A DNA stretch of 64,000 nt from an uncultured Deferribacteraceae bacterium (GCA_947313855.1 CAMZNS010000010.1:12769-76768), one strand, 5' to 3'. Shown: positions 1,930-49,920, counted from the first letter of the stretch. Made by a program: numbers and translations. The notes: generated by a model not told the origin, from the sequence alone.

Positions 1930-2046
1930 GGCGGGGGGTGTGCGGGGGGTGTGGAGAGGTTGTGTGCGAGGGTGTGCGGGAGGTGTGGAGAGGTTGTGCG
2001 GGGGTGGTCGGTGGTCGGCAGTCGGCAGTCGGCAGTCGGTGGTCAG
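1930..2046. repeat. Intergenic G-rich tandem repeats (about 25-mer x2, then heptamer cggcagt x4)
   Basis: Direct reading of gtgcgg..gtggagaggttgtg duplicated, followed by ggtcggcagtcggcagtcggcagtcggtggtc. Confidence 0.8.
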
Positions 2047-3326
2047 AGTCGTCGCAAAACCGCACGGTAGAATCCGTCGGAGTTCTCGAGATGGGGCATG
2101 ATGTACCCCTGTCGCTCTAGGGTGAACTCGGTATTCGTACGCAAAAAATCTTGGATGACGGCTGTTGTTTCCGCCGGCTCGAGGGAGCAGACACAGTAGT
2201 GGATGTAGTGTTTGGTCAGGGGGGCAACATGGTGGAGCATGGCAAGCTGTATGGGTTGCAATGTTTGTATGTCGCATGAGTTTTTGATGGCACGAACTTC
2301 GGGATGGCGACGAACGGTGCCGAGGCAGGAGCATGGTGCATCGAGCAGTGTGATGTCGCACAGGGGCACATCTTGTGGTGTTACGTCCATGATATCCTTG
2401 TTGAGGGGGCGAACATTGGACACGTTGTAGCCTCGGAGGTAGCTTTTGAGGGTGTTGAATCGGGAGGGATTAATCTCCACAGCGTGTACGAGTGCGTCGG
2501 GTAGGAGTTTTGCCATGGCGACGGTTTTGCCTCCAGGTGCGGCACAGGCGTCTAGGATGTGCAGGGTGTTGTCGTTGACGTTGGTGTTGTCGTTGACGTT
2601 GGTGTTGTCGTTGGCGATTTTCTCCCCAAGCTCAACGGTTTCCAGTGCGACCATGGCAGAGCCCTTGTCCATAGGTAGTACGCCATGTTTCTGCAGGTCT
2701 GATTCGGTTTTCAGGTTTTGGGGGTGTTCGTCCACGCGTATAATTTTGCCCGTATTGAGGTCTAGTCCCCAGTAGACGGGGGGCGTATTGAGGGTTGTGA
2801 GTAGGGTGTGGAGTTCAGCTCCTGTGCAGTGTGTTTTGAGGTTGTTGATAAAGTTGTTGGGGAAGTCGTCGTAAATAGTGTGTTTTGCGAGGATACTCTC
2901 CTTGGTGCGTGCTATTTCCATGAGTATCCAGTTTACAAACGGTTTTTGGTGTTTGGGGGCAAGTTCAACGGTTGTGCTGACTGCGGCGTAGTCGGGTACG
3001 GAGTCCATGAAGAGTATTTGTGCAATACCCATGGCGATAATACTGCGTAGGGCGGGTGTGGTGGTGGATTTGCTGTGGGTATCGATTAGGGAGTCGATGA
3101 AGGGGAGGTGTCGCATGGTGTTCAGGAATATTTTACGGTAGAATTTGCCGTGTTCCGAGTTGAGGAAGAACTCTTCGCTGTAGGAGCCGTTGTACACTTG
3201 GAGGATGAGGGACGCCACAGTACGGCGTTCATTGGCGTTAGCGTTAGTATTGGCGTTAGCGTTAGCAACTCCTGACGGTGATGACTGAGGGTGTGCCTCG
3301 GTGTGTGTGTGCTTGTGTTCAATCAT
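2043..3326 (-). CDS. rsmB: 16S rRNA (cytosine967-C5)-methyltransferase RsmB/Sun
   Basis: SAM-binding motif LDACAAPGGKT and catalytic DAPCSCLGTVRRHPE. N-terminal NusB-like part. Contains in-frame tandem repeats (NVNDNT x3 at 2566-2616; ANANTNANAN at 3232-3268). Confidence 0.85.
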   Translation of the reverse strand: MIEHKHTHTEAHPQSSPSGVANANANTNANANERRTVASLILQVYNGSYSEEFFLNSEHGKFYRKIFLNTMRHLPFIDSLIDTHSKSTTTPALRSIIAMGIAQILFMDSVPDYAAVSTTVELAPKHQKPFVNWILMEIARTKESILAKHTIYDDFPNNFINNLKTHCTGAELHTLLTTLNTPPVYWGLDLNTGKIIRVDEHPQNLKTESDLQKHGVLPMDKGSAMVALETVELGEKIANDNTNVNDNTNVNDNTLHILDACAAPGGKTVAMAKLLPDALVHAVEINPSRFNTLKSYLRGYNVSNVRPLNKDIMDVTPQDVPLCDITLLDAPCSCLGTVRRHPEVRAIKNSCDIQTLQPIQLAMLHHVAPLTKHYIHYCVCSLEPAETTAVIQDFLRTNTEFTLERQGYIMPHLENSDGFYRAVLRRL

Positions 3327-3440: not shown

Positions 3441-4736
3441 TTAGTTGTTGCGGAGGATGACAAAATCGCGTGAAACCCAGGCTTTAACACCGTTATCGGT
3501 ACGAATCTGCACCCAGTCGGGGTAGCTGACGCTGTCTATTACTTCGAGTCGGGAGTTGCGTGGCGACTGCAGTATAACATCGGAGTTGAGTGATGGTTGG
3601 TTGCGTAAGTTGAGTACGCGTGCAGCGACAATGGCGTAGTCATATTGGGGGGCAGGGATTACCTCGGGGCTGAGCTCAAGGAGGGGGGTGCCGAGGGTGA
3701 CAACGGTATCGACGGTGTCGGTGTCGATGTCGGTGTCGATGGTTACGATGGCGTCCTCTGTTAGAGAGTTGCGGTCATCCTCGAATAGTGTTGTGTATGT
3801 TTCGACGTCATTGGCTTGAATGTCCACCATGGCGTTGTTCCATTTGGGGTAGAGGAATACTGTGACCGGCACTGTAATAACGACGACTGGGATAACAATG
3901 GTGAAGAAGTTTCGAATGTGGTTATGGAGTCGTACGTTGTTGTTTTCAGGTTTGGGTGTGTCGAAGCAGTCCAGGTCTGCGATGCAGATGTGTTTGCTAC
4001 GTTTGAGGTACATTTGGAAGAGGAGTGTGTGTAAAATACGATTGAGTTGTTCCGTGTTGAGTTTGGATTTCAGGGCGATTGCGGTGATGGTGTCGTTGTC
4101 GTCGTAGCTGATGTGTAGTCGTTCGAATAGTTCAGCAATGCTTAAAACAACTAGGGGTAGGGTTACTTTGGGTAGCGTGTAGAATTCAACTCGGTTTGTC
4201 GCGAGGGTTCCGTTTAGGTGTTTGTTGCTGACTTCGCCAATAGAGGAGATAATTACTTTGGGGATGTCAAGGTTGAGAATATGTTTGTAGAAGTAGGGTG
4301 TGCTTTTCTTTGCGGTGTGGTTGCTGACAATCAGAACGAGGGAGTCTTTGTTGTCGTTGATAAATTCTAGGGTAGAGCTCCATGTGGTGTAGTACTGTTT
4401 TCTGAGTTGGTTTCCTGTTCGGGAGTAGATAGTGGCGTATACTGTATCTTCTGTGTCTGGGTCGTCATGGGTGTGTTTTTTGTCTGGAGAGTGTGGAATG
4501 AGTGTGGAGTCAACTATGCAGATATGTCCGTCGTTGATGCTGTTTGATACGGTGCTGTAGATGATGCTGGTGGTGTCGTGGTGTTTGTCGCCATCGATAA
4601 TGAAGACGTTGTTTTCGGACACCATGAAGTCGCATATCATCGGTTTGAGGTTGTAGAAGAACTCTTGGTCAAGGTTTATGTATTCCCCGTCGCTGTAGAG
4701 TCCTCGGTTGTTGTGGAAAAATTCGTTAAACGTCAT
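3441..4736 (-). CDS. Hypothetical bitopic membrane protein with a C-terminal bacterial SH3 (SH3b) domain
   Basis: 431 aa. About 270 aa N-terminal cytoplasmic domain of unknown fold, one TM (FFTIVIPVVVITVPVTVFLY), D/T-rich linker (TIDTDIDTDTVDTV), C-terminal YPDWVQIRTDNGVKAWVSRDFV SH3b-like module. Last gene of the ank-fapA-like operon. Confidence 0.6.
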   Translation of the reverse strand: MTFNEFFHNNRGLYSDGEYINLDQEFFYNLKPMICDFMVSENNVFIIDGDKHHDTTSIIYSTVSNSINDGHICIVDSTLIPHSPDKKHTHDDPDTEDTVYATIYSRTGNQLRKQYYTTWSSTLEFINDNKDSLVLIVSNHTAKKSTPYFYKHILNLDIPKVIISSIGEVSNKHLNGTLATNRVEFYTLPKVTLPLVVLSIAELFERLHISYDDNDTITAIALKSKLNTEQLNRILHTLLFQMYLKRSKHICIADLDCFDTPKPENNNVRLHNHIRNFFTIVIPVVVITVPVTVFLYPKWNNAMVDIQANDVETYTTLFEDDRNSLTEDAIVTIDTDIDTDTVDTVVTLGTPLLELSPEVIPAPQYDYAIVAARVLNLRNQPSLNSDVILQSPRNSRLEVIDSVSYPDWVQIRTDNGVKAWVSRDFVILRNN

Positions 4737-4903
4737 ATGGCATCACCACTACTTTTTATTATCCCCACGCTCATTTTTGTATGAACAATACCTAGTGCAC
4801 AGGACATACTGGGGTTTGTTTTGAAGCGTTGTTGTGTGTGTGGGGTATTGTTTTTAGATAGTATATGTTAACTTTGGTTGTATTTCTAGTGTTTTCCACT
4901 AGA

Positions 4904-6619
4904 TTATTTTTGGTAGTTTTTGTCGAATGAAACTGGCGTGTTCGATTCTTTAGTGAGCACTGTGTGTCGTGGTGTGTGTATGCGAGTACCCTCTTGCATT
5001 TTTTGTATGTCAGCGTAGAAATTATTACTGTATAGATTTTTGGAGAGAGAGTCAATATTTTCTTGCAGGTTTGTGATATGTTTTTTGAGGTCGGTTATTT
5101 GTTCAAAAACATGTTGGGGATAGTCCATATCGTCGTGAGGGTTGTTGTTGTCGAGTTCTTGTAGTTCGTGGATTTTTATTTCGGTGGTAAGAGCCTGTTT
5201 TTTGAGTTGGTATATTTTGTTTGCTTTTCGGTAGTGGAGTCCCATGTGTATGGATGTGGCGGAGCTACTGGGTGTGCCGATGGTGCCGAGGTATGCGTTG
5301 TGGTAGAAGGTGAGCATCCCCCCTGAGATAGAGGTTGTATCTTTGGTGAGTATGGTTTGTGTTGCCCATATTTTTGAGTTAAAAATATAGTTATCGATGA
5401 TGATAGTGTTGCCGTAGATGTTGGCTTGGCTGGAGTATGAGCAGTGTATGGTGGTGCCATGGATAGAGCTCCCCTTGCCGGCAATGCCATGGGATATGTA
5501 GAGCGTGCCCGTAGAAACTAGCGAAGAGCTCTGTACGGAGCCCATGATGTAGATGGCGTCACCTTGGATTGTGTACCCGCTTTCAACGTCGCTGTTAATG
5601 ATGATGCCACCTTGGAAGGTGATGGTTTTGTCTGTGGGTGGGAGTTTGTCGTAGGTTTTGTGTGGTAGGATGTGGAATGTGTTGTTGTTGAAGGAGACAA
5701 GTCCGGATGTGGTGGCTGTTACAATATTTGACTCTATTTTCACCCCTTGACCAGCGTTGATGGTGATTGTGTTGATTTTTTTGCTAGGAATAATCTCACC
5801 GGTCACAAGTATGGTATCGCGGGCTTGTGTGGCTGGTATTATGCGTGCGAAGCTCTCCCCTTTGTGGACGATGAGTGGTGCTGTTGAGTGCCACAGTAGT
5901 TGTTCCCTATGTTTTGCAAACAGTTGATTGGTGTTGTTTGTGTCGGTGTGTTGTTCAGTTTCGTCGGTATCGGGTTTTTTGTGGAACAGGAGTTTGGTGA
6001 GGTGTGTCAGCCAGCCCTCCTTCTTGGGTACCGATGTGATGTTGCTGTTTATTGTTGTCTTGTGCGGGGTTAGGGGGTTGTGTGCAGTGGTGTGGATGTG
6101 GTTTATGTTGTATCGGGGGTTAGGTTCCGTTGGTTGTATGGGCATTATGGAGGTATCGACGCCGTGTATCGGTTGTTGTTGGTGTGCGATGGGTGCTTGC
6201 AAGATGATGTACCCTTGTGAGGCGTACTGTAGGTATGTGTTGAGTGCTTCGGTGTTTATGAGTGGTTGGTAAAGGTTGTATTTTTTGACGATGTAGTGGG
6301 TTACGGCATCGGGGGAGAGGGATCGCCCTGCACCTAATCGGGGGTAGATGTTGACAGCGACCATGGAGCCATCGGGTTCGATGGAGAGTTTGATGCGTGC
6401 GTCCTGTTTTGGTGCCCGTCCGTCGCTATTTCCGCGAAATATTTTTGCACCGAGTGTGTCGGTTGTTTGGTAGATGCGGTATTGGGAGTTGTGGAGCTTG
6501 TAGACGTCGGTCAGTATTTTGTCGAGAGCATCGCGTCCTGCTTTGGATGGTATGAGGATTGTCATCCCCATGGCGTTATACTGAGCCGTATTTTTTGTAT
6601 TTTTTGATTGCGGTTTCAT
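4904..6619 (-). CDS. FapA-like (DUF342) protein: N-terminal domain, beta-helix-like G/I/V periodic repeats, C-terminal coiled coil
   Basis: 571 aa. Central region with periodic ..G..I.G.V..G.. repeats (ISHGIAGKGSSIHGTTIHCSYSSQANIYGNTIII) and a C-terminal heptad-rich tail, as in flagellar-assembly protein A / DUF342 proteins. Assignment from pattern memory, not a search. Confidence 0.5.
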   Translation of the reverse strand: MKPQSKNTKNTAQYNAMGMTILIPSKAGRDALDKILTDVYKLHNSQYRIYQTTDTLGAKIFRGNSDGRAPKQDARIKLSIEPDGSMVAVNIYPRLGAGRSLSPDAVTHYIVKKYNLYQPLINTEALNTYLQYASQGYIILQAPIAHQQQPIHGVDTSIMPIQPTEPNPRYNINHIHTTAHNPLTPHKTTINSNITSVPKKEGWLTHLTKLLFHKKPDTDETEQHTDTNNTNQLFAKHREQLLWHSTAPLIVHKGESFARIIPATQARDTILVTGEIIPSKKINTITINAGQGVKIESNIVTATTSGLVSFNNNTFHILPHKTYDKLPPTDKTITFQGGIIINSDVESGYTIQGDAIYIMGSVQSSSLVSTGTLYISHGIAGKGSSIHGTTIHCSYSSQANIYGNTIIIDNYIFNSKIWATQTILTKDTTSISGGMLTFYHNAYLGTIGTPSSSATSIHMGLHYRKANKIYQLKKQALTTEIKIHELQELDNNNPHDDMDYPQHVFEQITDLKKHITNLQENIDSLSKNLYSNNFYADIQKMQEGTRIHTPRHTVLTKESNTPVSFDKNYQK

Positions 6620-6680
6620 ATGGCTAAAGCCCCGTTCTTTTTAATTAGGTGCTTTTTTTGTGCATTTAGTTCCCATTTGT

Positions 6681-8066
6681 TTAGTTCCCTTTAATGACGA
6701 CGGGTGTTGTTACGCCACCGATACCTCTGGATACCGATGCTGGTGAGAGTTCTTGTCCGCCGGTGAGTAGAGAGTAGAGGGTTTCGTCGTTATTTGCGGC
6801 AGCAACATCGATTGCGGTGAGTCCGTCACTATTTTGCACAGTTGGTAGTGCACCGAATCGCAGTAGTATTGAGACCCCTTGGTTGTTAGAGTTGCTAACG
6901 GCGTAGTAGAGAGCGGTGTTGCCGAGGTTGTCTTGTGTGTTTGGGTTTGCACCGTTGAGCAGTAGTAGGTACATGGTTTGTATGCTTGACAGTTCGGAGG
7001 AGACGATGAGGGGTGTTTTTCTTTGTCCAACGCGTATGTTTACATCGGCACCGCTTTGGATTAGTCGTCGGACAACGTTGTAGTTGCTGAATGTTATTGC
7101 GATGGTGAGCGGTGTTTGTTGTTCGAAGTTGAGTCTGTTGGGTGATGCTCCTGCAGTGAGTAGTCGTTCGAGTATGTAGATGTTGCTTGTGCCTGATGCT
7201 ATCATGAGAGGTGTGTTGCCGTTGTTGTTGGATATATTTGGGTTGCTGGATTCGTCTAGGAGTAGGTCGACGATGCCGTTGTATCCGCCTTGTGTTGCGT
7301 AGAACAGTTCGTTGTTGCCGGATGTGTCCACAGTGTTTATTTTGGCACCACGGTTGAGTAGTTCTTTTACGATGAAAAGGTTCCCCTGTTTGGCGGCGAT
7401 CATGAGTGCTGTTTGTCCGTCGTTGTTTTTGTGATTGATGTTGATGCCTGAGTTGGCCAAAATAACGGCGATGTCGTTGTATCGGTTCCTTACGGATGCG
7501 ATGAGTGCGTTGTCTCCTGTGACGCTGTCCACTTGGTCTATCTCCACATTGGGGGAGGAGATCATGGATACGACCCTGTCTACTTCGCCACGGGATGAGG
7601 CAACGATGAGGAATATGTCACCGTCGTCGATGGGTGTGCCGGTGGGGTATGCAATGGCGATATCGGAGTTGTAGCTGTAGAAGAACGGGTTAACGTCACT
7701 GCGTCTCATGCGTATGGAGACGTAGTCGGGTTTGACCACTTGAATGCTTCCTGTGAGGTAGTCGGTAAGCATTCCGATGGGTGCGGCGGGGAGTAGTAGT
7801 AGGTTGGCGTAAAACCATGGGCTAATCCCGTCGTAGAATTCGATGGTGGCGTCTTCGTACCCTTGTCGACTGATGGTGATTGAGTCCACAGCGTTTTGGC
7901 TATTGATTTCGAGTAGTGCGGGTGTTTTGTAGTCTTTGCCGTTCACAAAAAAGTTTGAGTTGGGTGGATCGGTGTTGATGGGCACGTATTGTGTTGATGG
8001 GTTCATTAGGGTGGCACATCCGAGTAGTGCGAGTAGTGTTGGCACGAGCAGTAGTGTTAGCAGCAT
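6681..8066 (-). CDS. Ankyrin-repeat lipoprotein
   Basis: Probable start at the internal Met (8066), giving MLLTLLLVPTLLALLGCATL with lipobox LLGC. At least 6 ANK repeats (GNTPLMIA..., TPLTIAI..., KTPLIVSS..., GNTALYYAV...). The ORF extends to 8207 if the upstream Met is used. Confidence 0.75.
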   Translation of the reverse strand: MLLTLLLVPTLLALLGCATLMNPSTQYVPINTDPPNSNFFVNGKDYKTPALLEINSQNAVDSITISRQGYEDATIEFYDGISPWFYANLLLLPAAPIGMLTDYLTGSIQVVKPDYVSIRMRRSDVNPFFYSYNSDIAIAYPTGTPIDDGDIFLIVASSRGEVDRVVSMISSPNVEIDQVDSVTGDNALIASVRNRYNDIAVILANSGININHKNNDGQTALMIAAKQGNLFIVKELLNRGAKINTVDTSGNNELFYATQGGYNGIVDLLLDESSNPNISNNNGNTPLMIASGTSNIYILERLLTAGASPNRLNFEQQTPLTIAITFSNYNVVRRLIQSGADVNIRVGQRKTPLIVSSELSSIQTMYLLLLNGANPNTQDNLGNTALYYAVSNSNNQGVSILLRFGALPTVQNSDGLTAIDVAAANNDETLYSLLTGGQELSPASVSRGIGGVTTPVVIKGN

Positions 8067-8465
8067 ATTGCGTTGTTGTGTGTATTGCGATGGTGCTTTG
8101 CCGACGATAACGCTACTGCTAACGCCACTGCTAACGCTACTGCCGACGATAACGCTGTGGGTAGAGTGTTGGTGGGCGTTAGGGTTGTTTTTCGTAAGTA
8201 TACGCATACCGTTAAGCTCCCTTTGTGGCTGGTAACTTTAGTGTGTTGCACTATGTTTATTGTTTATTCATGTCTCACCTATTTACAATCATACACCAAA
8301 ATAATAGTAGTGGTCAAGTATATTGGCGACTTAATAACGGAATATTCCGTGTACATATTTTATTTGCATGTTGTATAATTGCTATGTGTATTGTAAGATT
8401 GCTCTGACGGAAGTGTTGGAGACAGCAAAACGCAATAAACAACTTTGTTTTGGGAGGTAGTTAGT

Positions 8466-9805: not shown

Positions 9806-9889
9806 AACAGACGCACAGACGCACAGACGCACAGACGCACAGACGCACAGACGCACAGACGCACAGACGCACAGACGCACAGACGCACA
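9806..9889. repeat. 8-bp tandem repeat (cagacgca x about 10)
   Basis: Direct reading. Immediately after the stop of the FadL-like gene. Confidence 0.9.
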
Positions 9890-10034: not shown

Positions 10035-10760
10035 TTATAGTTTGTAGCTCAGGGAAAGGGTAAACGATGAGATGATACCCAGCAGACCTGATACCAAGAA
10101 CACGCCCAGTATCATCAACAGTACGCCTGAAACAATGTTTGTGTATTTCAAGAACTTGAGGCTTCTGATTTTGGTAATGAGTGTGCTTACGGATAGTCCG
10201 ACGATAAAGAGTGGCACGAAGATACCCATGGAGTATGCACCCAAAAGTATCATCCCTTGGTACACTGAGCCTTGAAGGGCTGCAAGGGTAAGTATCCCCG
10301 ATAGAATTGGGCTGATGCAGGGTGCCCATCCCACGGAAAACGCAATACCGATGATGAATGCGTTAACGTAGAAAGGTGCCCTTACAAAGCCGCTGAAGTG
10401 TGATTTCTTCTCACCGAGTAGTGCTTTTATCTTCAGGATGCCTGTCATGTGCAGACCTAAGAAGATTATCAACACGCCGAGAACTTTCTCAACGGTGTAA
10501 CGATACTCAAACAGTAGGGAGCCGAAGAACGTGGATGTTGCCCCGAGTAGGATGAATATTAGGGAGAACCCAACGCCGAAAGATAGTAGCCCTATGATTA
10601 CTCGAATACGTGTGGCGAGTTTTGGTTTGCCACTTAAGAGCTCTTTTGCACTAACCCCTGACGTGTAAGCTAAATACCCTGGAAGTAGGGGGATTATACA
10701 TGGCGAAAAGAACGACAGTAGTCCGCCAAAGAACGATGAAGCGATTAAAGCGATACTCAT
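10035..10760 (-). CDS. ccdA: Cytochrome c-type biogenesis thiol-disulfide transporter CcdA (DsbD transmembrane-domain family)
   Basis: Conserved CcdA motif LLSFFSPCIIPLLPGYLAY, six TM. Start placed at 10760 (MSIALIASSFF) with a perfect AGGAGG RBS 7 nt upstream. The ORF extends to 10829. Confidence 0.8.
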   Translation of the reverse strand: MSIALIASSFFGGLLSFFSPCIIPLLPGYLAYTSGVSAKELLSGKPKLATRIRVIIGLLSFGVGFSLIFILLGATSTFFGSLLFEYRYTVEKVLGVLIIFLGLHMTGILKIKALLGEKKSHFSGFVRAPFYVNAFIIGIAFSVGWAPCISPILSGILTLAALQGSVYQGMILLGAYSMGIFVPLFIVGLSVSTLITKIRSLKFLKYTNIVSGVLLMILGVFLVSGLLGIISSFTLSLSYKL

Positions 10761-11076
10761 TAGAGTGCCTCCTAGTCTATCATTGGTTTCATTTATGTTG
10801 TCGAGAGCATGATTGGGGGACAGAGTCATCAGGTAAACCCAGATTATGCACCCTACTTAATTCTATTTACAAGTGTTAGCAACGATTGTTCGAGCGTCAG
10901 TATTGTTAAGACCGACGCCAACCGATTTTGTTCAAAGTTTTATCACATTTCTTTTATTAATAGCTAACTAAGTGTCAACAATACTACAGAGAAAAATAAT
11001 GTCAACAATACTTTTTGCATAATTGACAAAGAGTGTGGGTAAAGAATAAATTATACTGAATAAGTAGCAATAAACC

Positions 11077-11106
11077 TTGACTTTAGTGTGCTTTTGTAAC
11101 TATAGT
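11077..11106 (+). promoter_or_regulatory. Sigma70-like promoter candidate for the ccm operon (TTGACT-18-TATAGT)
   Basis: ttgact at 11077-11082, 18-bp spacer, tatagt at 11101-11106, about 75 bp upstream of ccmE. AT-rich 350-bp region with a direct repeat tgtcaacaatact x2 at 10975-11011. Confidence 0.4.
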
Positions 11107-11181
11107 ATAAACAGTGAAGTATATTTAAGGTTAGTGCAACAGCTTGGTGCAATAGCTTGGTGCAATAGGTAGGTTTAGCCC

Positions 11182-11571
11182 ATGAATCAAAATAAGAAAA
11201 TACTATTGGCCACTGTAGTGTTCTCATTCATAATTATCGGTATGATGTTTGTTGCCTTCAAAGGATCAAACTTCTACTATGTCAACGTATCCGATCTGCA
11301 AAAAAACATGAGCACTAACGAATTCCGCGTAACAGGAGAAGTTATCGCCGGAACGGTAGTGGACGCACCCGCCAAATCAACACTAATGTTTGCAATGGCC
11401 GATATTGATGACACCAGTATCGCTGTAGACGTAGTCTACAAAGGGATCAAACCCGACGCTTTTGCTGAGGGACAACACGCTGTTGTCGAAGGATCTTACG
11501 ACAGGGTGACGAATACCTTCCATGCCAAGACGATGCTCGTCAAGTGCCCCTCCAAATACGAAGAGGAGTAA
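11182..11571 (+). CDS. ccmE: Cytochrome c maturation haem chaperone CcmE, CxxxY variant
   Basis: N-terminal TM anchor, OB-fold core (GIKPDAFAEGQHAVVEGSY aligns with E. coli GILPDLFREGQGVVVQGEL). The C-terminal LVKCPSKY replaces the canonical LAKHDENY, i.e. Cys instead of the haem-binding His. Confidence 0.8.
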   Translation: MNQNKKILLATVVFSFIIIGMMFVAFKGSNFYYVNVSDLQKNMSTNEFRVTGEVIAGTVVDAPAKSTLMFAMADIDDTSIAVDVVYKGIKPDAFAEGQHAVVEGSYDRVTNTFHAKTMLVKCPSKYEEE

Positions 11572-11650
11572 CGGTCGGCGGTCGGCGGTCGGCGGTCGGC
11601 GGTAACGGTCGCGGTTGCGGTAATGGTCGGCGGTTGCGGTAAGCACGCCC
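11572..11650. repeat. Intergenic tandem repeat (cggtcggcggt-type units)
   Basis: cggtcggcggtcggcggtcggcggtcggcggtaacggtcgcggttgcggtaatggtcggcggttgcggtaag. Confidence 0.85.
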
Positions 11651-11729
11651 TTACAGAACACACGCAGTCGTAACAGCAAAACGAACAAGCACGATTCATG
11701 TTATGAAAAAACACTCGGAGATATAAATA

Positions 11730-13694
11730 ATGACCCTCGGTTTATCCCTACAATATTTGGCGTTTGCCGCCTACACATTCGCCCTAGCGTCATACGCTCT
11801 TGCCATCTACAAAAACTCTAAAAAGATACGCTTTTACGCCTCACTAGGTGTTATGTTAGGCTTTGTCTTCGTTGTTGGTGCCGTCACACTACTGGAAATC
11901 GCACTCGTAACCGACGATATCCGCAACGTATACGTCGCCAATTACGCCGGTGCCAACATGCCCCTCATCTACAAAATAACAGCTTTGTGGGGTGGTCAGG
12001 CTGGTTCCCTCCTGTTCTGGCTCTTCCTCATCGCCATATTCGCTGTTGTGGAGTTGGCAAGCATCGAACGATACGATGTGAAATTCGGCTCATACATAAT
12101 GATAGCCATCATCGCCAATATCCTCTTCTTCAACATGATGGTCATCGAATACAACCCGTTCGAACTACTAGACGACCAGATTGCACCCATGCTCATACAG
12201 GGCGTTGGGCTCAATCCGCTACTGCAAAATATCGGAATGATATACCACCCGCCACTGCTCTACATCGGCTACACCGTAATGCTCATACCGTTCTCGTACG
12301 CCTTTGCAGCACTAATCACCCGTCGCCTCGATGCGTTCTGGATAGACTCCGTACGTAGCTGGATACTCTTCGCATGGACAGCACTCACAGCAGGTGTTAT
12401 CCTCGGTGGACAGTGGGCATACGTGGAGCTAGGTTGGGGTGGTTATTGGGCATGGGATCCTGTGGAGAACGCGTCCATCTTCCCTTGGTTTGCCATAACA
12501 GCGTACTTGCATATGGTTTTGGTGTATAAGTCCACGCGTAAGTTCGCCATCTTCACATTTGCCACAGCCATGGGGGTGCATATCCTGTCCATCTTCGGCA
12601 CCTACCTCACTCGTAGCGGTATCGTTACGTCTGTACACTCCTTTGCCCCCTCTAGCATCGGAACCCTGTTCCTGTACTACATGGGTGCACTGACCCTTGT
12701 TAGCGTTGCGTTGATTGTTTACAATAGGAACTCCCTATCACTTGTGGACAAGATTAACTTCCAATCGAAATCGTCGTTAATAGTCTACGGTGTGGTGCTT
12801 CTTTTTGCCCTCAATTTCGCTATTATCTTCGGAACTATTGCCCCCGTAATAACTGGCTGGTTCGGCGAACAACGCTCCCCCGCACTTGAGTACTACAATA
12901 TCGTATCCATACCCATCTTCATGGTCATACTGCTGCTTATGGGTATTGCGTCTGTGATGGTCACATTCCGTCGTTATGGGAAAAAGCTTCTCTACTTGGC
13001 TATTGTGGCATCGGTACTCAGTCTTCTGGTATTCCTCGTGATGGGTTACCGCTCGCTGATACCCTCCGCCCTCCTATTTGTGGCGTTCATGACCATGTAT
13101 GCTTCGGCTTTTACACTGTACTACTACTTCCGTAGCAAGGTGAAGTTTATTCGTGCTGGCTCGTTGTACGGTGCTCAGATTGTGCATTTCGGCATAGGGG
13201 TAATTGCCATCGGAATCATAAGCACATCGTTTTATTCCCAAGAGTTTGACATTGTCATTGATGGCGACGTCATCACCAATATTGGCGACACAGGTTACGG
13301 CGTCGAACCGAACAAGGTTCGCTACTTTGTTGGCTCGAATTACGAAGAGGCTGCCCTCGACATGAGTATTTACAAGGACGGGAAATACCTCACCAACCTA
13401 CTACCGGGCATACGCATGTACCCACCAGACGACCAACAAATATTCCGTGAAGTGGCAATTTACAGCCACGGTTTGTCCGAATTTTACGTAGCATTCATTA
13501 CCATTGTTGAGAAGGTGCAGTACCGCATACTAGTCATTATCCAACCACTCATGGCACTACTGTGGATCGGTTCCGGAATTATCATGCTTGGTGGACTATG
13601 GCTCTGGATTACATCCATGATAAACAACAGTATTCGCTACAGTCGTGGCAGAAAAGCACTCAAAACATCAACAAACCCAAGTCAGGGAAGTTAA
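11730..13694 (+). CDS. ccmF: Cytochrome c-type biogenesis protein CcmF (haem lyase, WWD domain)
   Basis: 654 aa polytopic protein with WWD motif LGWGGYWAWDPVENASIFPWF and conserved His residues. Follows ccmE. Confidence 0.9.
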   Translation: MTLGLSLQYLAFAAYTFALASYALAIYKNSKKIRFYASLGVMLGFVFVVGAVTLLEIALVTDDIRNVYVANYAGANMPLIYKITALWGGQAGSLLFWLFLIAIFAVVELASIERYDVKFGSYIMIAIIANILFFNMMVIEYNPFELLDDQIAPMLIQGVGLNPLLQNIGMIYHPPLLYIGYTVMLIPFSYAFAALITRRLDAFWIDSVRSWILFAWTALTAGVILGGQWAYVELGWGGYWAWDPVENASIFPWFAITAYLHMVLVYKSTRKFAIFTFATAMGVHILSIFGTYLTRSGIVTSVHSFAPSSIGTLFLYYMGALTLVSVALIVYNRNSLSLVDKINFQSKSSLIVYGVVLLFALNFAIIFGTIAPVITGWFGEQRSPALEYYNIVSIPIFMVILLLMGIASVMVTFRRYGKKLLYLAIVASVLSLLVFLVMGYRSLIPSALLFVAFMTMYASAFTLYYYFRSKVKFIRAGSLYGAQIVHFGIGVIAIGIISTSFYSQEFDIVIDGDVITNIGDTGYGVEPNKVRYFVGSNYEEAALDMSIYKDGKYLTNLLPGIRMYPPDDQQIFREVAIYSHGLSEFYVAFITIVEKVQYRILVIIQPLMALLWIGSGIIMLGGLWLWITSMINNSIRYSRGRKALKTSTNPSQGS

Positions 13695-13707
13695 AGAGAG
13701 TTGCTTT

Positions 13708-14385
13708 GTGATTTATAGTACCAACAACCTAAGTAAAGTTTACGGCACCAAAGTGGTTCTCAGAAAAGTGAACCTTAGTATCGGCGAAGGCGAATTTTTA
13801 CTCCTAGCAGGACACAACGGTGCGGGGAAATCCACACTCATAAGCCTGCTAGCAAATCGCCTGAAACCAACCAAAGGCGAAATCCTCTACAATGAAAAAC
13901 CCCTCAAAAGCTGGGGCAACGGCTACTACAACCATGTGGGCTTCCTCGGCGACGCAACAAACCTCTACCCACAGCTCACCGTCTACCGAAACCTCACCCT
14001 AGTAGCAAAAATATACGGACTACCGCAAAGCCGAGTTGATGACGTACTGGAAGAGTTTAGCCTCGAAGTGCACAAGGGCAAAAAATTGACAGAGCTGTCC
14101 AAGGGTCTCAAGCAGAGGGTGAACTTTGCCAGAGCCATAATGCACAACCCCAAAATTATCATGGCTGACGAACCGTTCTCAGGCATCGATATCACATTTA
14201 CGAAAACCATGGTCGACATGCTCGAAGGTTGGAAAAATATGGGGCGTACGATTATTCTTGCAACACACACGTTCGATCATATTTGGCACCTACCACACCG
14301 CGTTGCAATCATCAAAGACGCCTCACTAGTGTACCACGACAATACGGAAAACATCTCCCCCGAAGGTATTGTCGAGCACTACTAG
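13708..14385 (+). CDS. ccmA: Haem-exporter ABC ATPase CcmA
   Basis: Walker A GHNGAGKST, ABC signature LSKGLKQRV, Walker B IIMADEPFSGID. Start placed at GTG 13708 to avoid overlap with ccmF. The ORF track extends to 13645. Confidence 0.8.
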   Translation: MIYSTNNLSKVYGTKVVLRKVNLSIGEGEFLLLAGHNGAGKSTLISLLANRLKPTKGEILYNEKPLKSWGNGYYNHVGFLGDATNLYPQLTVYRNLTLVAKIYGLPQSRVDDVLEEFSLEVHKGKKLTELSKGLKQRVNFARAIMHNPKIIMADEPFSGIDITFTKTMVDMLEGWKNMGRTIILATHTFDHIWHLPHRVAIIKDASLVYHDNTENISPEGIVEHY

Positions 14386-14388
14386 CAA

Positions 14389-14544
14389 CCCGCACGGCTG
14401 GCAATTGGCACGGCTGGTAATTGGCACGGCTAGTAATTGGCACGGCTGGTAATTGGCACGGCTAGTAATTGGCACGGCTGGCAATTGGCACGGCTAGTAA
14501 TTGGCACGGCTAGTAATTGGCACGGCTGGTAATTGGCACGGCTA
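14389..14544. repeat. 17-bp tandem repeat (ggcacggctggtaattg x about 9, with g/c and g/a variants)
   Basis: Direct reading. Lies between ccmA and ccmB. Confidence 0.9.
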
Positions 14545-14576
14545 TGGCATGAAGCTACAAACTACAGGAAGGTACA

Positions 14577-15251
14577 ATGATTAGGTATTTCAGGGACTTC
14601 AAGGTGCTATTTGTGCACAACATGGTGAGCGAGCTACTCAATCGCGAACTCATATACCTCTCCGTGGCGTTCTCCCTAATGCTATCAGTAATACTCGCCT
14701 TCGCCACACATGGTAGCTCGAGCCTCGAACTCACCGTGTCCATGTACTCTGTAGCACTCATCTTCACCATCAACCTCATATCCATGCGTGCCATGTATTA
14801 CGAATACCAAGAGGGGGGGATAAACACCATCCTATTTTCGCCCATGGTTGACGCGTCAGCCTTTGTTTTTGCTAAAGGGTTGACCAACTTCTTTTACGTA
14901 ATGGTGGTAGCGGTGCTAATGTTGCCGTTCTACTTCACAACGGGCATCTTCACGCAGGGTGCATTACTAGGTGTTGTGCTTCTGATTACAGCAATAACTA
15001 TGGTTGGTGTTGCTGTGATAACGTCGTTTTTGGCGTTCATGGCATTCCATACTGCAGCCAAGGAGGTACTCCTGTTTGTTCTACAGCTACCCTTTGTTCT
15101 GCCAGTCATCATGGCGTACAATTTCATCCTTGGGTCGGTGGTTGTTGATGGTGCCGATATCCCTTGGCGAATGCTTACGCTACTGGTTGGGTACGACTTT
15201 ATCGTAATATTTATCATATTTATCCTGTTCGATTTTCTAATCAGGGACTAG
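14577..15251 (+). CDS. ccmB: Haem exporter membrane subunit CcmB
   Basis: 224 aa, 6 TM, position between ccmA and ccmC, CcmB-like composition. Confidence 0.75.
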   Translation: MIRYFRDFKVLFVHNMVSELLNRELIYLSVAFSLMLSVILAFATHGSSSLELTVSMYSVALIFTINLISMRAMYYEYQEGGINTILFSPMVDASAFVFAKGLTNFFYVMVVAVLMLPFYFTTGIFTQGALLGVVLLITAITMVGVAVITSFLAFMAFHTAAKEVLLFVLQLPFVLPVIMAYNFILGSVVVDGADIPWRMLTLLVGYDFIVIFIIFILFDFLIRD

Positions 15252-15306
15252 AAGGGGTATGACGTAAGGACTAACGCAGAGAATAAAACATAGAAACGGA
15301 GCTATT

Positions 15307-15978
15307 ATGAAAAAAAGTTATTTGATACCATTAAACATTGTATTCTTATCGGCATTCGGAGTGCTTGTGTATTTCGGGATAGTGTTCCCCCCAGTTGAGC
15401 GCGTTATGGGGATTGTTCAGAAGATATTTTACGTCCATATCGGTTTAGTTGCCATGGCGATGTTCTCTTTTTTCCTAGCCTTTGTTCTGTCTGTTATCTA
15501 TCTTATCACCGAAAGGCCGAAGATCGATATTTTGGCGTCGAACGCTATCTACATCGGAACGATAATGTTTGCTCTCGTAATCACTACAGGTATGATTTGG
15601 GCAAAGCCGGCATGGGGCACCTTTTGGGTTTGGGATCCACGCCTAACCATATCTCTGATGACGTTCCTGTTGTATATTTCCTACATTATGCTACGTGTTT
15701 TCATCGATGATCATTCCAAAAGGGCAACATTTTCGGCGGTACTAGCGATAATGACGTTTATCCTGACCCCCATCAATTATTTTGCAACAAGGTGGTGGAA
15801 TTCCATGCACCCCGTGGTATTTGGTAAAGAGGGTTCCGATGGACTAACGCCTGATATGATGACATCTGTTGAGGTATCGGTAGCCATGATGGCGATAATG
15901 TATCTGATTATATCGTGGGAAGCCTACACGGTGCAGGTGCTAAGCTACAAAAAACGTATGAAGAAACTGGATATCTAG
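15307..15978 (+). CDS. ccmC: Haem exporter / haem-handling protein CcmC (WWD domain)
   Basis: WWD motif GTFWVWDPRLTISLMTFLLY, conserved His residues, 223 aa. Confidence 0.85.
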   Translation: MKKSYLIPLNIVFLSAFGVLVYFGIVFPPVERVMGIVQKIFYVHIGLVAMAMFSFFLAFVLSVIYLITERPKIDILASNAIYIGTIMFALVITTGMIWAKPAWGTFWVWDPRLTISLMTFLLYISYIMLRVFIDDHSKRATFSAVLAIMTFILTPINYFATRWWNSMHPVVFGKEGSDGLTPDMMTSVEVSVAMMAIMYLIISWEAYTVQVLSYKKRMKKLDI

Positions 15979-15991
15979 GGAGTAGACAAAA

Positions 15992-16135
15992 TGGGCAATA
16001 ACGTAATATTTTTAATTTCGGCGTATGTGGTATCCATCGTAGTTCTTCTGGTTGTTCAGTTTTTCTTGACATACTTGGTTATCAAGAAGATGAACACAGC
16101 GGTGGAAGATTCTGACAACGGTTCTGACAACGATT
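15992..16135 (+). CDS. ccmD: Probable CcmD (small single-TM haem exporter protein D), 47 aa
   Basis: Not in the ORF track (<60 aa). ATG 14 nt after the ccmC stop. MGNNVIFLISAYVVSIVVLLVVQFFLTYLVIKKMNTAVEDSDNGSDND: one TM plus an acidic tail, as in CcmD. The 3' end runs into the aacggttctgacaacg repeat. Confidence 0.45.
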
Positions 16136-16167
16136 AGTGCAACGGTTCTGACAACTAATGGTTAGGG

Positions 16168-16360
16168 GTATTTGTGCGGTTACGCAATAATGGTAATCGT
16201 GGAGCCCGCAAGAGTGGTGTCATCCGTACAAGTGTCGACATGACTGACGTATTCGTATTTGTGCGGTTACGCAATAATGGTAATCGTGGAGCCCGCAAGA
16301 GTGGTGTCATCCGTACAAGTGTCGACATGACTGACGTATTCGTATTTGTGCGGTTTGGAG
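16168..16360. repeat. 87-bp direct repeat x2 plus a partial third copy
   Basis: gtatttgtgcggttacgcaataatggtaatcgtggagcccgcaagagtggtgtcatccgtacaagtgtcgacatgactgacgtattc at 16168 and 16255. A truncated copy starts at 16342. Each unit carries an internal inverted repeat gtcat..(SalI gtcgac)..atgac. Confidence 0.9.
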
Positions 16361-20262: not shown

Positions 20263-20452
20263 GTTGTGCGTTTGCAATGTTGTGCGTTGGTAGCGTTGCG
20301 TTTGCAATGTTGGTGTTGACCGCGTTGCGTTTGCAATGTTGTGCGTTGACCGCGTTGCGTTTGCAATGTTGTGCGTTGACCGCGTTGCGTTTGCAATGTT
20401 GTGCGTTGGTAGCGTTGCGTTTGCAATGTTGGTGTTGACCACGTTGCGTTGG
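20260..20452. repeat. About 30-bp tandem repeat x6 (core gcgttgcgtttgcaatgttg with variable 10-bp linkers)
   Basis: Direct reading. No unique spacers, so not CRISPR. Confidence 0.9.
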
Positions 20453-21287: not shown

Positions 21288-21592
21288 CGGGCAGCGTGGC
21301 ACAGCTTGAGTCGGCGTTGCGTTATGTTGGCGTATTCGCGTTGCAGTTGCGTTGCAGTTGCGTTGCACAGCTTGAGTCGGCGTTGCGTTATGTTGGCGTA
21401 TTCGCGTTGCAGTTGCGTTGCAGTTGCGTGGCACAGCTTGAGTCGGCGTTGCGTTATGTTGGCGTATTCGCGTTGCAGTTGCGTTGCACAGCTTGAGTCG
21501 GCGTTGCGTTATGTTGGCGTATTCGCGTGGCAGTTGCGTGGCACAGCTTGAGTCGGCGTTGCGTTATGTTGGCGTATTCGCGTTGCAGTTTT
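21288..21592. repeat. About 60-66-bp tandem repeat x5 (ggcacagcttgagtcggcgttgcgttatgttggcgtattcgcgttgcagttgcgttgca...)
   Basis: Direct reading. Units contain nested gcgttgcagtt sub-repeats. No unique spacers. Confidence 0.9.
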
Positions 21593-24431: not shown

Positions 24432-26294
24432 ATGGATGGTTTGAGTTTATACAAGTTTTTTCGGTGCTGTAACGAAATTTTCGGGGCTAACGCTAACGCT
24501 AACGCTAACGCTGGTGCTGGTGCTAACGCTGGTGCTGGTGCTAACGCTAACGCTGGTGCTAACGCTGGTGCACAAGTGAACTCACTCCTACTATGGAACG
24601 ACGCCATCTACCTCAACCTTTACAAAAAAGAGGTACACTCGTTGGCATTTACGTTCGGATCTGGTCGTGCTAGCCTGTCGTTTGTGAGCGATACATTTTC
24701 GTCGAAGCAGGTGGGTATTTTCGAGAACCTACGTGGGGGCACTGTTGAGGGGTTTTCCACCCATGGACATGATCGCATCGGGTTTGTTGACATAGCGAAA
24801 CGTCGCCCTAGTGGTAAGTTGCAGCGGTTTCGGTTAGTGTTTGAGATTGTTGGTGCCATGTCCAACTTCTTTATCCTTGATGGCGAAACTGGTCGCATCC
24901 TCTACAACCTTAATCAGCGTAACATGGATACCGCTCGCTCTATCGGCGTGTCCCATGTGTATCAACCCTTTGCCTCCAACAAAACCATGGCTTTGGCGAA
25001 CTACAGCAGTGCCTCTGAGGCTCGACTTGACGCCCCTACGAATAGTTCGGCGTCTGCTGCTGCTGAGGCGTATTTTTCGTCCCTCGAAGGGTTCTCCAAA
25101 CCACTTGTACGCGAGGCTGTTGATCTGGTTGAGTCGCACGGTTACGATGTGGCGTTGGAGTATATTTTCCATGAAATAAATATGGGCACCGACTTTTACG
25201 CCCAAGACGCCACCCTATTGCCCTTTACAAGGCATGTCTGTGGTATGGATGATTTCGCCAATGTGGGGGGTACATCCCCTGAGACACCCCCTGAGACACC
25301 CCCTGTTGAGGGAGCAAAGTGGCGTGCATACAACTTTCTGAGCCCAGAGATGGGAGCGTATTTGCAGTCCTTGACACCGCGGGAAGCTACCCTGCGAATA
25401 TCTGTGGCAAGTAGTATTCGTAAGGGGCTTAAAAAATATACTCAGCTGTGCAAAGGCTTACGTACCGAGTTGGAGAACGCCTCAAACTACGAAAAATATC
25501 GCCAAGAGGCAGACCTACTAAAGATGAACCTACACACTGTTCGAGGTCGCGGCGTCTACAGCCTCACCAAATACACCCCTGATGGCGTTGAATCGAATAT
25601 CCGATACACCTACAACAGCGATCTACATGTTCACGACTACATGAAACGACTCTACCACCGTGCAGGACGACTCGAACGAGGTATCCCTGTCATACAAGAA
25701 AGACTCAACCTCATGGAAAGCTATGTGAAGTTTTACGAAGAACAGGAACACTACTGCGAAACAGCATCATACGGCGAACTGCTCTACATGCGAAGTAACG
25801 TGCTCGTGCTTGGCAAAAAAGGGGGGGAACCTAACAAACACGGATCCGGCGGTGCCAAAGGACGCAAAAAACTGGACGCTCGACTAAAATATGAAGGGTT
25901 CCACCGATTCGAAATAGACGGCGTACTGTGCATGCTCGGGAAAAATAGTCGCGGAAACCACGAACTACTACGTGAAGCACTGCCACACGACCACTGGGTG
26001 CACGCCAAAGGGATACCATCTGCACACGGAATAATACGATGGAACAACGACAACAACACTAACCATGACCAAGATAAACTGGACGCACTAATACACACAA
26101 TGGCTCAACTAGTTGCACACTACACCAAAACAACCAACAAACAGGTGGAAATAGACTACACAATACGCAAAAATGTGCGAAACGTAAAAGGTGCACCCAT
26201 GGGGTTCGTAACCTACAAAGGATTCAAAACCATCGCTGTGAACAAAATGAACAAAAACAAAGTAGAACAAATTATCGAGAACAGGAAGCGGTAA
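24432..26294 (+). CDS. RqcH/FbpA-like NFACT-family protein (ribosome quality control)
   Basis: C-terminal NFACT-R/DUF814-like HDHWVHAKGIPSAHGIIRWNND, coiled coil in the middle. N-terminus carries an in-frame hexamer repeat (ANANANANAGAGANAGAGANANAGANAGA, 24487-24570) and PETPPETPP (25276-25303). Confidence 0.65.
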   Translation: MDGLSLYKFFRCCNEIFGANANANANAGAGANAGAGANANAGANAGAQVNSLLLWNDAIYLNLYKKEVHSLAFTFGSGRASLSFVSDTFSSKQVGIFENLRGGTVEGFSTHGHDRIGFVDIAKRRPSGKLQRFRLVFEIVGAMSNFFILDGETGRILYNLNQRNMDTARSIGVSHVYQPFASNKTMALANYSSASEARLDAPTNSSASAAAEAYFSSLEGFSKPLVREAVDLVESHGYDVALEYIFHEINMGTDFYAQDATLLPFTRHVCGMDDFANVGGTSPETPPETPPVEGAKWRAYNFLSPEMGAYLQSLTPREATLRISVASSIRKGLKKYTQLCKGLRTELENASNYEKYRQEADLLKMNLHTVRGRGVYSLTKYTPDGVESNIRYTYNSDLHVHDYMKRLYHRAGRLERGIPVIQERLNLMESYVKFYEEQEHYCETASYGELLYMRSNVLVLGKKGGEPNKHGSGGAKGRKKLDARLKYEGFHRFEIDGVLCMLGKNSRGNHELLREALPHDHWVHAKGIPSAHGIIRWNNDNNTNHDQDKLDALIHTMAQLVAHYTKTTNKQVEIDYTIRKNVRNVKGAPMGFVTYKGFKTIAVNKMNKNKVEQIIENRKR

Positions 26295-48825: not shown

Positions 48826-49320
48826 GTGTTGCCGGGTGTTATGGGGGGGCTATGCCCGTCCACGCCCACGTACAACCGTCCACGCCCACGCACAACCGTC
48901 CACGCCCACGCCCACTCACAACCGTCCACGCCCACGCACAACCGTCCACGACCACGCACAACCGTCCACGCCCACGCACAACCGTCCACGACCACGCCCA
49001 CGTACAACCTCGTACAACCGTCCACGCCCACGCACAACCGTCCACGCCCACGCACAACCGTTCACGCCCACGCACAACCGTCCACGACCACGCACAACCG
49101 TCCACGACCACGCACAACCGTCCACGCCCACGCACAACCGCCCACGCCCACACACAACCCCCCACCCCCACACACACCCCCCCACCCCCCCACCCACCCC
49201 CCCCCCCGCCCACCCGCCCCCCCCCCCCCACACCCGACCCCGCCCACGCACAACCGTCCACGACCACGCACAACCGTCCACGACCACGCACTCATCTTTC
49301 CCCACAATCCCGACTTCGTT
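48826..49320. repeat. About 500-bp array of a 21-bp tandem repeat (ccacgcccacgcacaaccgtc x about 20, with a/c variants), decaying into poly-C tracts (runs of 11 and 13 C)
   Basis: Direct reading. All six frames are open through it (ORF-track ORFs of 150-218 aa here are repeat artefacts). Minus strand carries G-runs. Confidence 0.9.
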
Positions 49321-49644: not shown

Positions 49645-49718
49645 CGCGGGGTAGAGCAGCTTGGTAGCTCGTTGGGCTCATAACCCAGAGGTCGTTGGTT
49701 CAAATCCAGCCCCCGCAA
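49645..49718 (+). tRNA. tRNA-fMet (initiator, anticodon CAT)
   Basis: Cloverleaf read by hand: acceptor CGCGGGG/CCCCGCA with a C1-A72 mismatch typical of bacterial initiator tRNA. Anticodon loop CTCATAA. T-arm GGTTCAAATCC. No encoded CCA. Confidence 0.8.
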
Positions 49719-49818: not shown

Positions 49819-49920
49819 ATTATCCCCTCACTTTCGTCGCCGTATTCGGCACAATCTTTCACCGTTCACCCCTCACCCCTCACTTTTTTAATGTAGTAAC
49901 AAGCGTTCGGCGTACTGTGT

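Follow-up and report, generated by a model that had tools for sequence, protein, structure and literature searches.

A cytochrome c maturation locus of probable System I* type in an uncultured Deferribacterota bacterium

Introduction

Can a cytochrome c maturation (Ccm) locus that encodes neither CcmG nor CcmH, and whose haem chaperone CcmE carries a cysteine at the position of the haem-binding histidine, supply a bacterium with c-type cytochromes? The question is raised by a 64,000-nt stretch of DNA from an uncultured Deferribacteraceae bacterium (GCA_947313855.1, CAMZNS010000010.1:12769-76768), the whole of which is called the window here. At 10035-16137 it carries one minus-strand open reading frame (ORF), ccdA, and six plus-strand ORFs, namely ccmE-ccmF-ccmA-ccmB-ccmC and a 48-amino-acid (aa) ORF. 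A first-pass annotation had described this region as a minimal variant of System I, and every ORF that it listed was found in its place, with the same gene content and order and a divergent ccdA.

On its genes and motifs, the locus is assigned to System I* Ccm, an already described variant. The Cys-type Ccm that bears this name is said to have been described by Allen et al. 2006 and Goddard et al. 2010, the Cys-type CcmE having been recognised from genomes in 2006. The locus very likely represents a functional System I*-type module of a host-associated member of the Deferribacterota, probably a species of Candidatus (Ca.) Rimicarispirillum from the midgut of Rimicaris shrimp. In Ca. Rimicarispirillum, genomes measure 1.25-1.36 Mb, G+C contents lie at 46.7-47.6%, and average nucleotide identity between the two described species is about 87% (PMC9636832). 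With about 47% G+C and about 88% identity to M_SnakePit_MAG_00002, the window probably belongs to the sister species of the latter, Ca. R. atlantis. Homologous loci and contigs that were compared with the window locus carry L-numbers (L001, L002 and so on) as labels.

A cysteine occupies the haem-binding position of CcmE

The ccmE gene (11182-11571, plus strand) encodes a 129-aa protein, a predicted membrane-anchored haem chaperone, that matched PF03100 in Pfam with E = 7.3e-24. Its C-terminus, ...TMLVKCPSKYEEE, ends in TMLVKC122PSKY126EEE. In phmmer comparisons with solved structures, 'lvkCpskY' fell on 'lakHdenY' of E. coli CcmE (8ce8_E, 1sr3_A), and an identical register was obtained in a MAFFT alignment of 19 relatives and the E. 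coli protein, with C122 corresponding to E. coli H130 and Y126 to Y134. The alignment of C122PSKY126 to H130DENY134 by both methods upholds the earlier placement of this CcmE in the CxxxY class, and System I* calls for just this exchange of the haem-binding His for Cys in the (H/C)xxxY motif.

C122 is the sole cysteine of the protein. Since neither of its two histidines (H99 and H114) is in a conserved alignment column and C122 fell on H130 in every alignment, a histidine at the haem position through another register, which the first-pass annotation had itself named as the finding that would overturn its reading, is ruled out. The closest solved structure to this CcmE was 2KCT (phmmer, E = 9.5e-10), which is a Cys-type CcmE from Desulfovibrio vulgaris according to a review (PMC3884852). 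The importance of this cysteine is known from Methanosarcina acetivorans, where the C120A allele gave no haem-stained CcmE, the C120H allele left CcmE undetectable, and neither restored holocytochrome c (PMC9084895). The Cys-type CcmE of D. desulfuricans binds haem covalently (PMC3601427).

CcmF, CcmC, CcmA and CcdA retain their catalytic motifs

The predicted haem lyase (cytochrome c synthetase) CcmF is encoded at 11730-13694 (plus strand, 654 aa). It matched both PF01578 (Cytochrom_C_asm, 5e-30) and PF16327 (CcmF_C, 1.2e-32), and aligned with the Thermus thermophilus CcmF 6ZMQ_A over 624 residues (E = 3.7e-66) with its motifs in register. The WWD motif is retained as W236GGYWAWDPVEN (WGGYWAWDPVEN), and His173, His261, His303 and His486 lie in the conserved motifs HPP, LH, SVH[AS]F and VHF. 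We take these four histidines to be the four haem ligands. The WWD motif and the four conserved His expected of the CcmF synthetase in a System I* locus are thereby present.

CcmC (15307-15978, plus strand, 223 aa), the predicted haem-handling protein, matched PF01578 (1.2e-31) and TIGR01191 (3.3e-34, 118 bits against a cut-off of 186), and was similar to E. coli CcmC 7F02_C with E = 7.8e-19. Its His44, its WWD motif W103GTFWVWDPRLT and its His168 match the E. coli motifs iiylHvp, WGTWWVWDARLT and wwntlHqg.

The ATP-binding cassette (ABC) ATPase CcmA, encoded at 13708-14385 (plus strand, 225 aa), matched PF00005 (7.2e-31) and has a complete set of motifs: Walker A (G35HNGAGKS), signature (LSKGLKQ), Walker B (IIMADEP) and H-loop (ATH). 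Its score against the TIGR01189 ccmA model, 110 bits, falls under the cut-off of 131.6, so the name CcmA rests on context; homologues occupy the same position in about 40 loci.

CcdA (10035-10760, minus strand, 241 aa) is predicted to be a six-helix thiol-disulfide transporter of the DsbD_TM family. It matched PF02683 over nearly its full length (E = 5.5e-16, 59 bits against a cut-off of 27.1), and PF13386 with 2.3e-10. The protein contains exactly two cysteines, C21 (FSPC) and C148 (WAPC), and is without a fused thioredoxin domain. It thus has the six-helix domain of a CcdA and a single Cys in both of the conserved Pro-Cys motifs, and is 96% identical in amino acid sequence to its counterpart in L002.

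A divergent CcmB and a candidate CcmD

The 224-aa product of the gene at 14577-15251 (plus strand), the predicted membrane subunit of the CcmAB ABC complex, had no direct match in Pfam, NCBIfam or PDB sequences, the ccmB models TIGR01190 and PF03379 included, and a search of 5.8 billion proteins returned nothing beyond its own cluster. It is homologous to the ORF between ccmA and ccmC in 25 other loci (phmmer, 1e-5 to 4e-16), with values of 8e-16 to 4e-16 for the same-position ORFs of L003, L007 and L065. These homologues in turn matched TIGR01190 at 1e-15 to 7e-20, scoring 57-72 bits against a cut-off of 156. A profile was built from 22 of the same-position proteins, leaving the window protein out. 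Because this profile matched the window ORF over its whole length (E = 4e-22) and also E. coli CcmB (E = 2e-23), the 224-aa protein is identified by profile comparison as a divergent CcmB. The haem delivery module of System I*, CcmA, CcmB and CcmC, is accordingly accounted for: CcmC by direct match, CcmB via the profile and CcmA by its conserved position.

A small plus-strand ORF begins 12 nt past ccmC, at 15991-16137, with GGGAG upstream. The first-pass annotation had proposed a ccmD here; an ORF is indeed present directly after ccmC, with a length of 48 aa, not 47. Its product has one hydrophobic helix (about residues 5-31) followed by KK and an acidic tail, as befits a small single-helix protein encoded in the position of CcmD. 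Relative to L002 there is one substitution (I31L) across the first 41 residues, and the ratio of nonsynonymous to synonymous substitution rates (dN/dS) is 0.26, with almost all changes in the acidic tail. The ORF is also present as a gene product in an NCBI-sourced protein collection.

Family models (TIGR04391, TIGR03141, PF04995) gave no match to the 48-aa ORF, nor did any other Pfam or NCBIfam entry at E<=10, a direct comparison with PDB sequences gave nothing useful, and a homologue search retrieved only its own cluster and the sister species. Around 20 other loci, L003 and L007 among them, have a 42-57-aa ORF directly past ccmC with the pattern YLFAAYxVIW...L..R. Three of these were compared with TIGR04391 CcmD_alt and matched it at 7e-11, 3e-16 and 6e-7. 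Alignment of the 48-aa ORF to such small ORFs by hhalign gave P = 2.7e-4 and a probability of 42%. The ORF is a probable CcmD equivalent on the grounds of its position, topology and conservation, the sequence evidence being weak.

Search for CcmH, CcmG and CxxCH proteins in the window

Proteins were sought among 693 window ORFs with a CcmH hidden Markov model (HMM) made from five Pfam-verified CcmH proteins, and with an E. coli CcmG probe. The E. coli CcmG and CcmH sequences served as probes and alignment guides only. The CcmH HMM identified no CcmH among the window ORFs, its best hit (E = 0.26) being the small ccmD-like ORF itself, and no CcmG-like protein was found with the E. coli probe (best E = 0.57). 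Outside the window the same probes did succeed, detecting CcmH in 31 loci and CcmG-like proteins in 7. Among the well-supported genes of the window, a CxxC motif occurs only in those for QueH, a 927-aa protein and a 217-aa protein, none of which matched the CcmG or CcmH probes. CcmH was likewise not found in the Deferribacterota loci L002, L003, L007 and L076 (10-20 kb per locus). The earlier statement that CcmG and CcmH are missing thus stands for the 64-kb window and extends to the homologous 20-kb loci of other Deferribacterota; it holds for the locus, not for the organism.

Distribution of the Cys-type locus and comparison with known systems

The first-pass annotation had placed the variant in Archaea and Desulfovibrio-like bacteria, which proved too narrow. 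When the pattern [LVI][AVT]KCPSK[YF][EK] was searched among GTDB species representatives, at least 509 CcmE genes matched, in many phyla; the matches listed came from Acidobacteriota, Chloroflexota, Desulfobacterota, Latescibacterota, Eisenbacteria, Actinomycetota, Nitrospirota, Armatimonadota, Bacillota, Methanoperedens and others. A general link between a Cys-type CcmE and the absence of CcmH also failed: CcmH (PF03918, 1e-15 to 1e-23) was present in 31 of the 50 CPSKY loci that could be judged, nearly always directly after ccmF. The CcmE cysteine and the loss of CcmH are therefore separable, and CcmH loss is lineage-specific, not tied to the cysteine. The absence of CcmH once belonged to the definition of System I*; it is not characteristic according to Stevens et al. 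2011, who reported CcmH in about one-third of Cys-type bacteria (PMC3601427).

Within the sampled loci, the divergent ccdA-ccmE pair was seen only in Deferribacterota (L002, L003, L005, L007 and L008). The full arrangement, a minus-strand ccdA facing ccmE-F-A-B-C-D with ccmF abutting ccmA, was found in the sister species L002 and in the Deferribacterales metagenome-assembled genomes (MAGs) L003 and L007; in these three, where ccmF is visible, no CcmH follows ccmF and no CcmG lies nearby. In L076, from a termite-associated Deferribacteraceae MAG, ccmE-ccmF-ccmA at 4535-7655 is followed by unrelated opposite-strand genes. As neither ccmB nor ccmC was detected in the 2.5 kb left on that contig, the operon is split in this lineage.

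In its overall make-up the locus agrees with the published System I* (PMC3601427, PMC9084895). The systems of D. desulfuricans and D. vulgaris share with it a CPSKY Cys-type CcmE, the presence of CcmD and an operon without CcmH and CcmG. Their gene order, reportedly set out in Goddard 2010, is E-F-A-B-C-D, as in the window. The window locus differs from them in belonging to a host-associated Deferribacterota genome of about 1.3 Mb, in its ccdA divergently paired with ccmE (a pairing seen in five Deferribacterota loci), and in a more divergent CcmB and CcmD that have no family-model match; its spacers, moreover, contain tandem-repeat arrays. Its CcmE is about 28% identical to that of a Desulfovibrio-type locus (L081). 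The D. desulfuricans operon, without CcmH and CcmG, matures cytochromes c in E. coli (PMC3601427).

The CcmABCEF1F2 system of M. acetivorans resembles the window locus in its CxxxY CcmE, whose Cys is required there, in lacking CcmH and CcmI, and in having CcdA (PMC9084895). In the archaeal system, however, CcmD is absent, CcmF is split in two, the genes are scattered over several loci and ccmG stands beside ccdA (PMC9084895), whereas the window groups its genes in one locus, with an undivided CcmF, a CcmD-like ORF and no neighbouring ccmG. System I of E. coli (CcmABCDEFGH with DsbD; 7F02, 8CE8, 1SR3) has homologous CcmA, CcmB, CcmC, CcmE and CcmF with the same WWD motifs and haem-ligand His. 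Compared with it, the window has Cys122 for CcmE His130, a different gene order, no CcmG or CcmH in the locus, and a CcdA consisting of the membrane domain only instead of the three-domain DsbD.

The CPSKY loci with CcmH (in Acidobacteriota, Chloroflexota, Desulfobulbus, Latescibacterota, Eisenbacteria, Cytobacillus and others) share the Cys-type motif and the ccmE-ccmF...ccmA-ccmB-ccmC-ccmD(alt) backbone. They differ from the window in having ccmH, and often an ORF of about 100 aa, between ccmF and ccmA, and mostly no adjacent ccdA. The CcmH found beside a Cys-type CcmE in Acidobacteriota and others carries the motif L[VM]CxCGC, for example LVCTCGC (L012 6021-6491, L018 12408-12869, L022 12390-12875, L016 7370-7843, L065 12409-12873). 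Set against the equivalent E. coli motif, LRCPKC, the redox motif of this CcmH is respaced. Many CPSKY loci have the ORF of about 100 aa at a conserved position, between ccmH and ccmA (L012 6527-6811, L018 12870-13181, L072 12946-13254, L029 2947-3249), and it may be a further, undescribed accessory of CPSKY-type systems; the two examined, from L012 and L018, had no Pfam match.

The locus is under purifying selection

The closest relative of the window is contig CAMZNJ010000010.1, 'uncultured Deferribacteraceae bacterium M_SnakePit_MAG_00002', with about 88% DNA identity over 18.9 kb and full synteny. All reading frames are intact in both. At dS of 0.29-0.66, the six larger genes have dN/dS of 0.025-0.084 (ccmB 0.025, the lowest; ccmF 0.061; ccdA 0.066; ccmE 0.084); because these values, and the 0.26 of the small ORF, are so low at such dS, every component of the locus is under strong purifying selection.

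Proposed mechanism and alternative explanations

The biochemical steps proposed here, like the operon transcription and the substrates, are drawn by homology from the E. coli, Desulfovibrio and Methanosarcina systems; they build on the observed presence and order of genes, conservation of catalytic residues, purifying selection and synteny among Deferribacterota. CcmC would hold haem between His44 and His168 beneath its WWD motif and hand it to the membrane-anchored CcmE, the complex of the two being stabilised by the 48-aa CcmD-like helix. A haem vinyl group would bond covalently to Cys122 of CcmE, which replaces the canonical His, with Tyr126 as axial ligand. ATP hydrolysis by CcmA/CcmB would free holo-CcmE, and CcmF, which has a WWD motif and the four conserved His, would receive the haem and make two thioether bonds to the CxxCH of exported apocytochromes, a step that would proceed without a locus-encoded CcmH partner. 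CcdA would move reducing equivalents across the membrane via Cys21 and Cys148 and keep the apocytochrome cysteines reduced, acting directly or via a thioredoxin-like protein encoded elsewhere.

A cbb3 oxidase, NrfA and a cytochrome c peroxidase are present in Mucispirillum schaedleri, the closest relative in culture, whose cytochrome c biogenesis genes are highly expressed in vivo (PMC5285517). By analogy with M. schaedleri and the termite-gut Deferribacterota, subunits of a cbb3 oxidase, cytochrome c peroxidase or nitrite reductases are likely substrates. For Ca. Rimicarispirillum the locus would imply that c-type cytochromes are retained, and therefore some periplasmic or terminal-oxidase electron transport. 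The retention of the ccdA-ccmE pairing across the phylum suggests that CcdA is the dedicated reductant channel of this CcmH/CcmG-less form. With this locus, a clean and strongly conserved case of System I* comes from a phylum and a lifestyle unnamed in older surveys, namely the Deferribacterota and a reduced shrimp-gut symbiont; it leaves the understanding of cytochrome c biogenesis unchanged, and the finding is correct but ordinary.

Several observations weigh against a functional System I* module. CcmA, CcmB, CcmC and CcmF all fall short of curated NCBIfam cut-offs, CcmB being without any direct match, and the 48-aa ORF scored E = 1.7 with a custom CcmD_alt HMM, rank 2 of the 693 window ORFs; this is not significant, and membership of the CcmD family is therefore not claimed. 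No ORF in the window contains a CxxCH motif. The 158-nt and 191-nt spacers within the gene cluster consist mostly of tandem repeats that differ between the two species, and a single operon presupposes that they are transcribed through. On the covalent Cys-haem step even the model proteins disagree, haem binding by D. vulgaris CcmE having been reported as non-covalent (PMC3884852). Reconstructions of the Rimicaris symbionts mention fumarate reductase and complex I only, and no c-type cytochromes; neither cytochromes nor ccm genes are listed in the supplements of Aubé 2022 or of the termite Deferribacterota paper. Finally, a CcmH, CcmI or CcmG-like protein could lie elsewhere in the genome of about 1.3 Mb, of which 64 kb was searched.

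This last point bears on how much of the apparatus the locus represents. It is possible, if rather doubtful, that the seven genes form a complete apparatus, with no CcmH-, CcmI- or CcmG-like protein anywhere in the 1.3-Mb genome and with CcdA reducing apocytochrome cysteines directly or via CcmE/CcmF. In that case the ccdA-ccmE pairing would be a Deferribacterota-wide solution, and the Rimicaris gut symbiont would run a respiration dependent on c-type cytochromes, for instance a microaerobic cbb3 pathway, that is missing from published reconstructions. It is unlikely, though still to be reckoned with, that the same machinery is not minimal and draws on CcmH/CcmI and/or a periplasmic thioredoxin-like partner (CcmG, ResA or TlpA) encoded elsewhere. 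CcdA usually passes its electrons to a thioredoxin-like protein, and in M. acetivorans ccmG and ccdA occupy a locus apart from the other ccm genes (PMC9084895); 31 of the 50 other CPSKY-type loci have CcmH and 7 loci a CcmG-like gene, and the search for CcmH and CcmG covered 64 kb. CcmH, however, where it occurs in CPSKY loci, nearly always comes directly after ccmF, whereas ccmF abuts ccmA in L002, L003, L007 and L076, with no CcmH in 10-20 kb of each, and the Desulfovibrio system functions in E. coli without CcmH and CcmG (PMC3601427).

Two further explanations would deny the locus a general role in cytochrome c maturation. By E-value the top NCBIfam match of CcmF was TIGR03145 nrfE, which would make it an NrfE-type lyase dedicated to the CXXCK haem site of nitrite reductase. 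The 329 bits of that match are far under the cut-off of 927, however, and nearly equalled by the 324 bits of the general CcmF/NrfE model TIGR00353, also under its cut-off; the gene lies within a full ccmEFABCD operon, with no nrfA, nrfF, nrfG or CxxCK/CxxCH protein nearby, and the symbiont MAGs are reported to be without nitrate reduction genes. On score, neighbourhood and operon context this NrfE-specific role was rejected as highly improbable. We give equally little credence to the locus as a decaying remnant that no longer makes cytochromes c, despite the reduction of the genome to 1.25-1.36 Mb, the divergence of CcmB and CcmD past recognition by family models, the expansion of repeat arrays within the operon spacers and the lack of any cytochrome named in published reconstructions. 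The frames are intact in two species at dS 0.3-0.65, dN/dS is 0.025-0.084 and lowest for CcmB, all catalytic residues are retained, and the repeats are confined to the outside of coding sequences; intact frames and low dN/dS led us to reject a pseudogene remnant in favour of a functional System I*-type module.

Locus organisation, tandem repeats and neighbouring features

Two genes of the locus have alternative starts. The longest ccdA ORF spans 10035-10829 (minus strand, ATG at 10829), and the conserved start at 10760 gives the 241 aa at which the gene is called in L001, L083 and L084; the frame of the 23-aa N-terminal extension (10761-10829) is closed in the relative L002. For ccmA the longest ORF is 13645-14385, with a GTG at 13645 and a 50-nt overlap with ccmF, and the ATG at 13708 is likelier; this start, giving 225 aa, is the one called in L082 and L083, and the same length is called on contigs with the identical gene and in the relative. 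Because of these calls on identical or related contigs and the closed upstream frame in L002, the true starts are probably 13708 (ccmA) and 10760 (ccdA) rather than those of the longest ORFs.

The divergent intergenic region between ccdA and ccmE (10761-11181) is AT-rich and mostly kept in the relative. A consensus scan placed sigma-70-like hexamer pairs in it at 11023-11052 (plus), 11077-11106 (plus) and 11005-10978 (minus), near chance level and thus of descriptive value only, and Tandem Repeats Finder (TRF) located a 13-mer repeat of 2.7 copies at 11134-11168. Between the plus-strand genes the spacers measure 158 nt (E-F), 13 nt (F-A), 191 nt (A-B), 55 nt (B-C) and 12 nt (C-D). Terminator-like sites in the region numbered 9 against 8.1 expected, near chance, with 0 in any spacer, and Rfam identified no RNA family in the locus. 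Co-transcription of the ccm genes as a single, putative operon is plausible.

Tandem repeats follow the ccmE stop codon at 11572-11642, where TRF resolved CGGTCGG in 4.6 copies inside a 19-mer in 4.2 copies; the relative carries a different array at that place in the ccmE-ccmF spacer. Most of the ccmA-ccmB spacer is taken up by 9.5 copies of the 16-mer GCACGGCTGGTAATTG (14392-14543, TRF score 262), and the corresponding spacer of the relative, 47 nt long, has the 8-nt core just once, as a near-copy (GTACGGCT). Throughout the locus, the repeats stay outside coding sequences.

Across the window there are about 35 short tandem-repeat arrays with periods of 6-156 nt, in many intergenic spacers. 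Besides the two within the locus and one at 16168-16355, they include 9807-9889, 20267-20450, 21294-21590, 48856-49291, 55742-55995 and 61493-61667. The corresponding spacers of the sister genome have other arrays or none, and arrays with a GCACGG core occur in the two genomes alike. Two short-read Logan contigs, L001 and L082, end precisely at the arrays at 11572-11642 and 14392-14543, respectively, so the assembled copy numbers may be unreliable. The array at 48856-49291, a 20-mer in 22 copies with a C-rich tract of about 70 nt (49158-49229), lies just upstream of two tRNA genes, at 49645-49718 and 49746-49819, and may reflect either hypervariability or a fault in the assembly.

Elsewhere in the window, repeats run into the 5' ends of ORFs, at 24432-24570 (plus), at about 3230-3270 in ORF 2043-3326 (minus) and at about 8100-8160 in ORF 6681-8207 (minus). 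The N-terminal stretches that they encode are of low complexity, for example ANANANANAGAGANAGAGANAN and SSVSSGVSSSV. The last of these ORFs encodes a 508-aa protein with multiple ankyrin repeats, whose L084 orthologue matched Ank_2, Ank_5 and Ank in Pfam; proteins of this class are common among host-associated bacteria.

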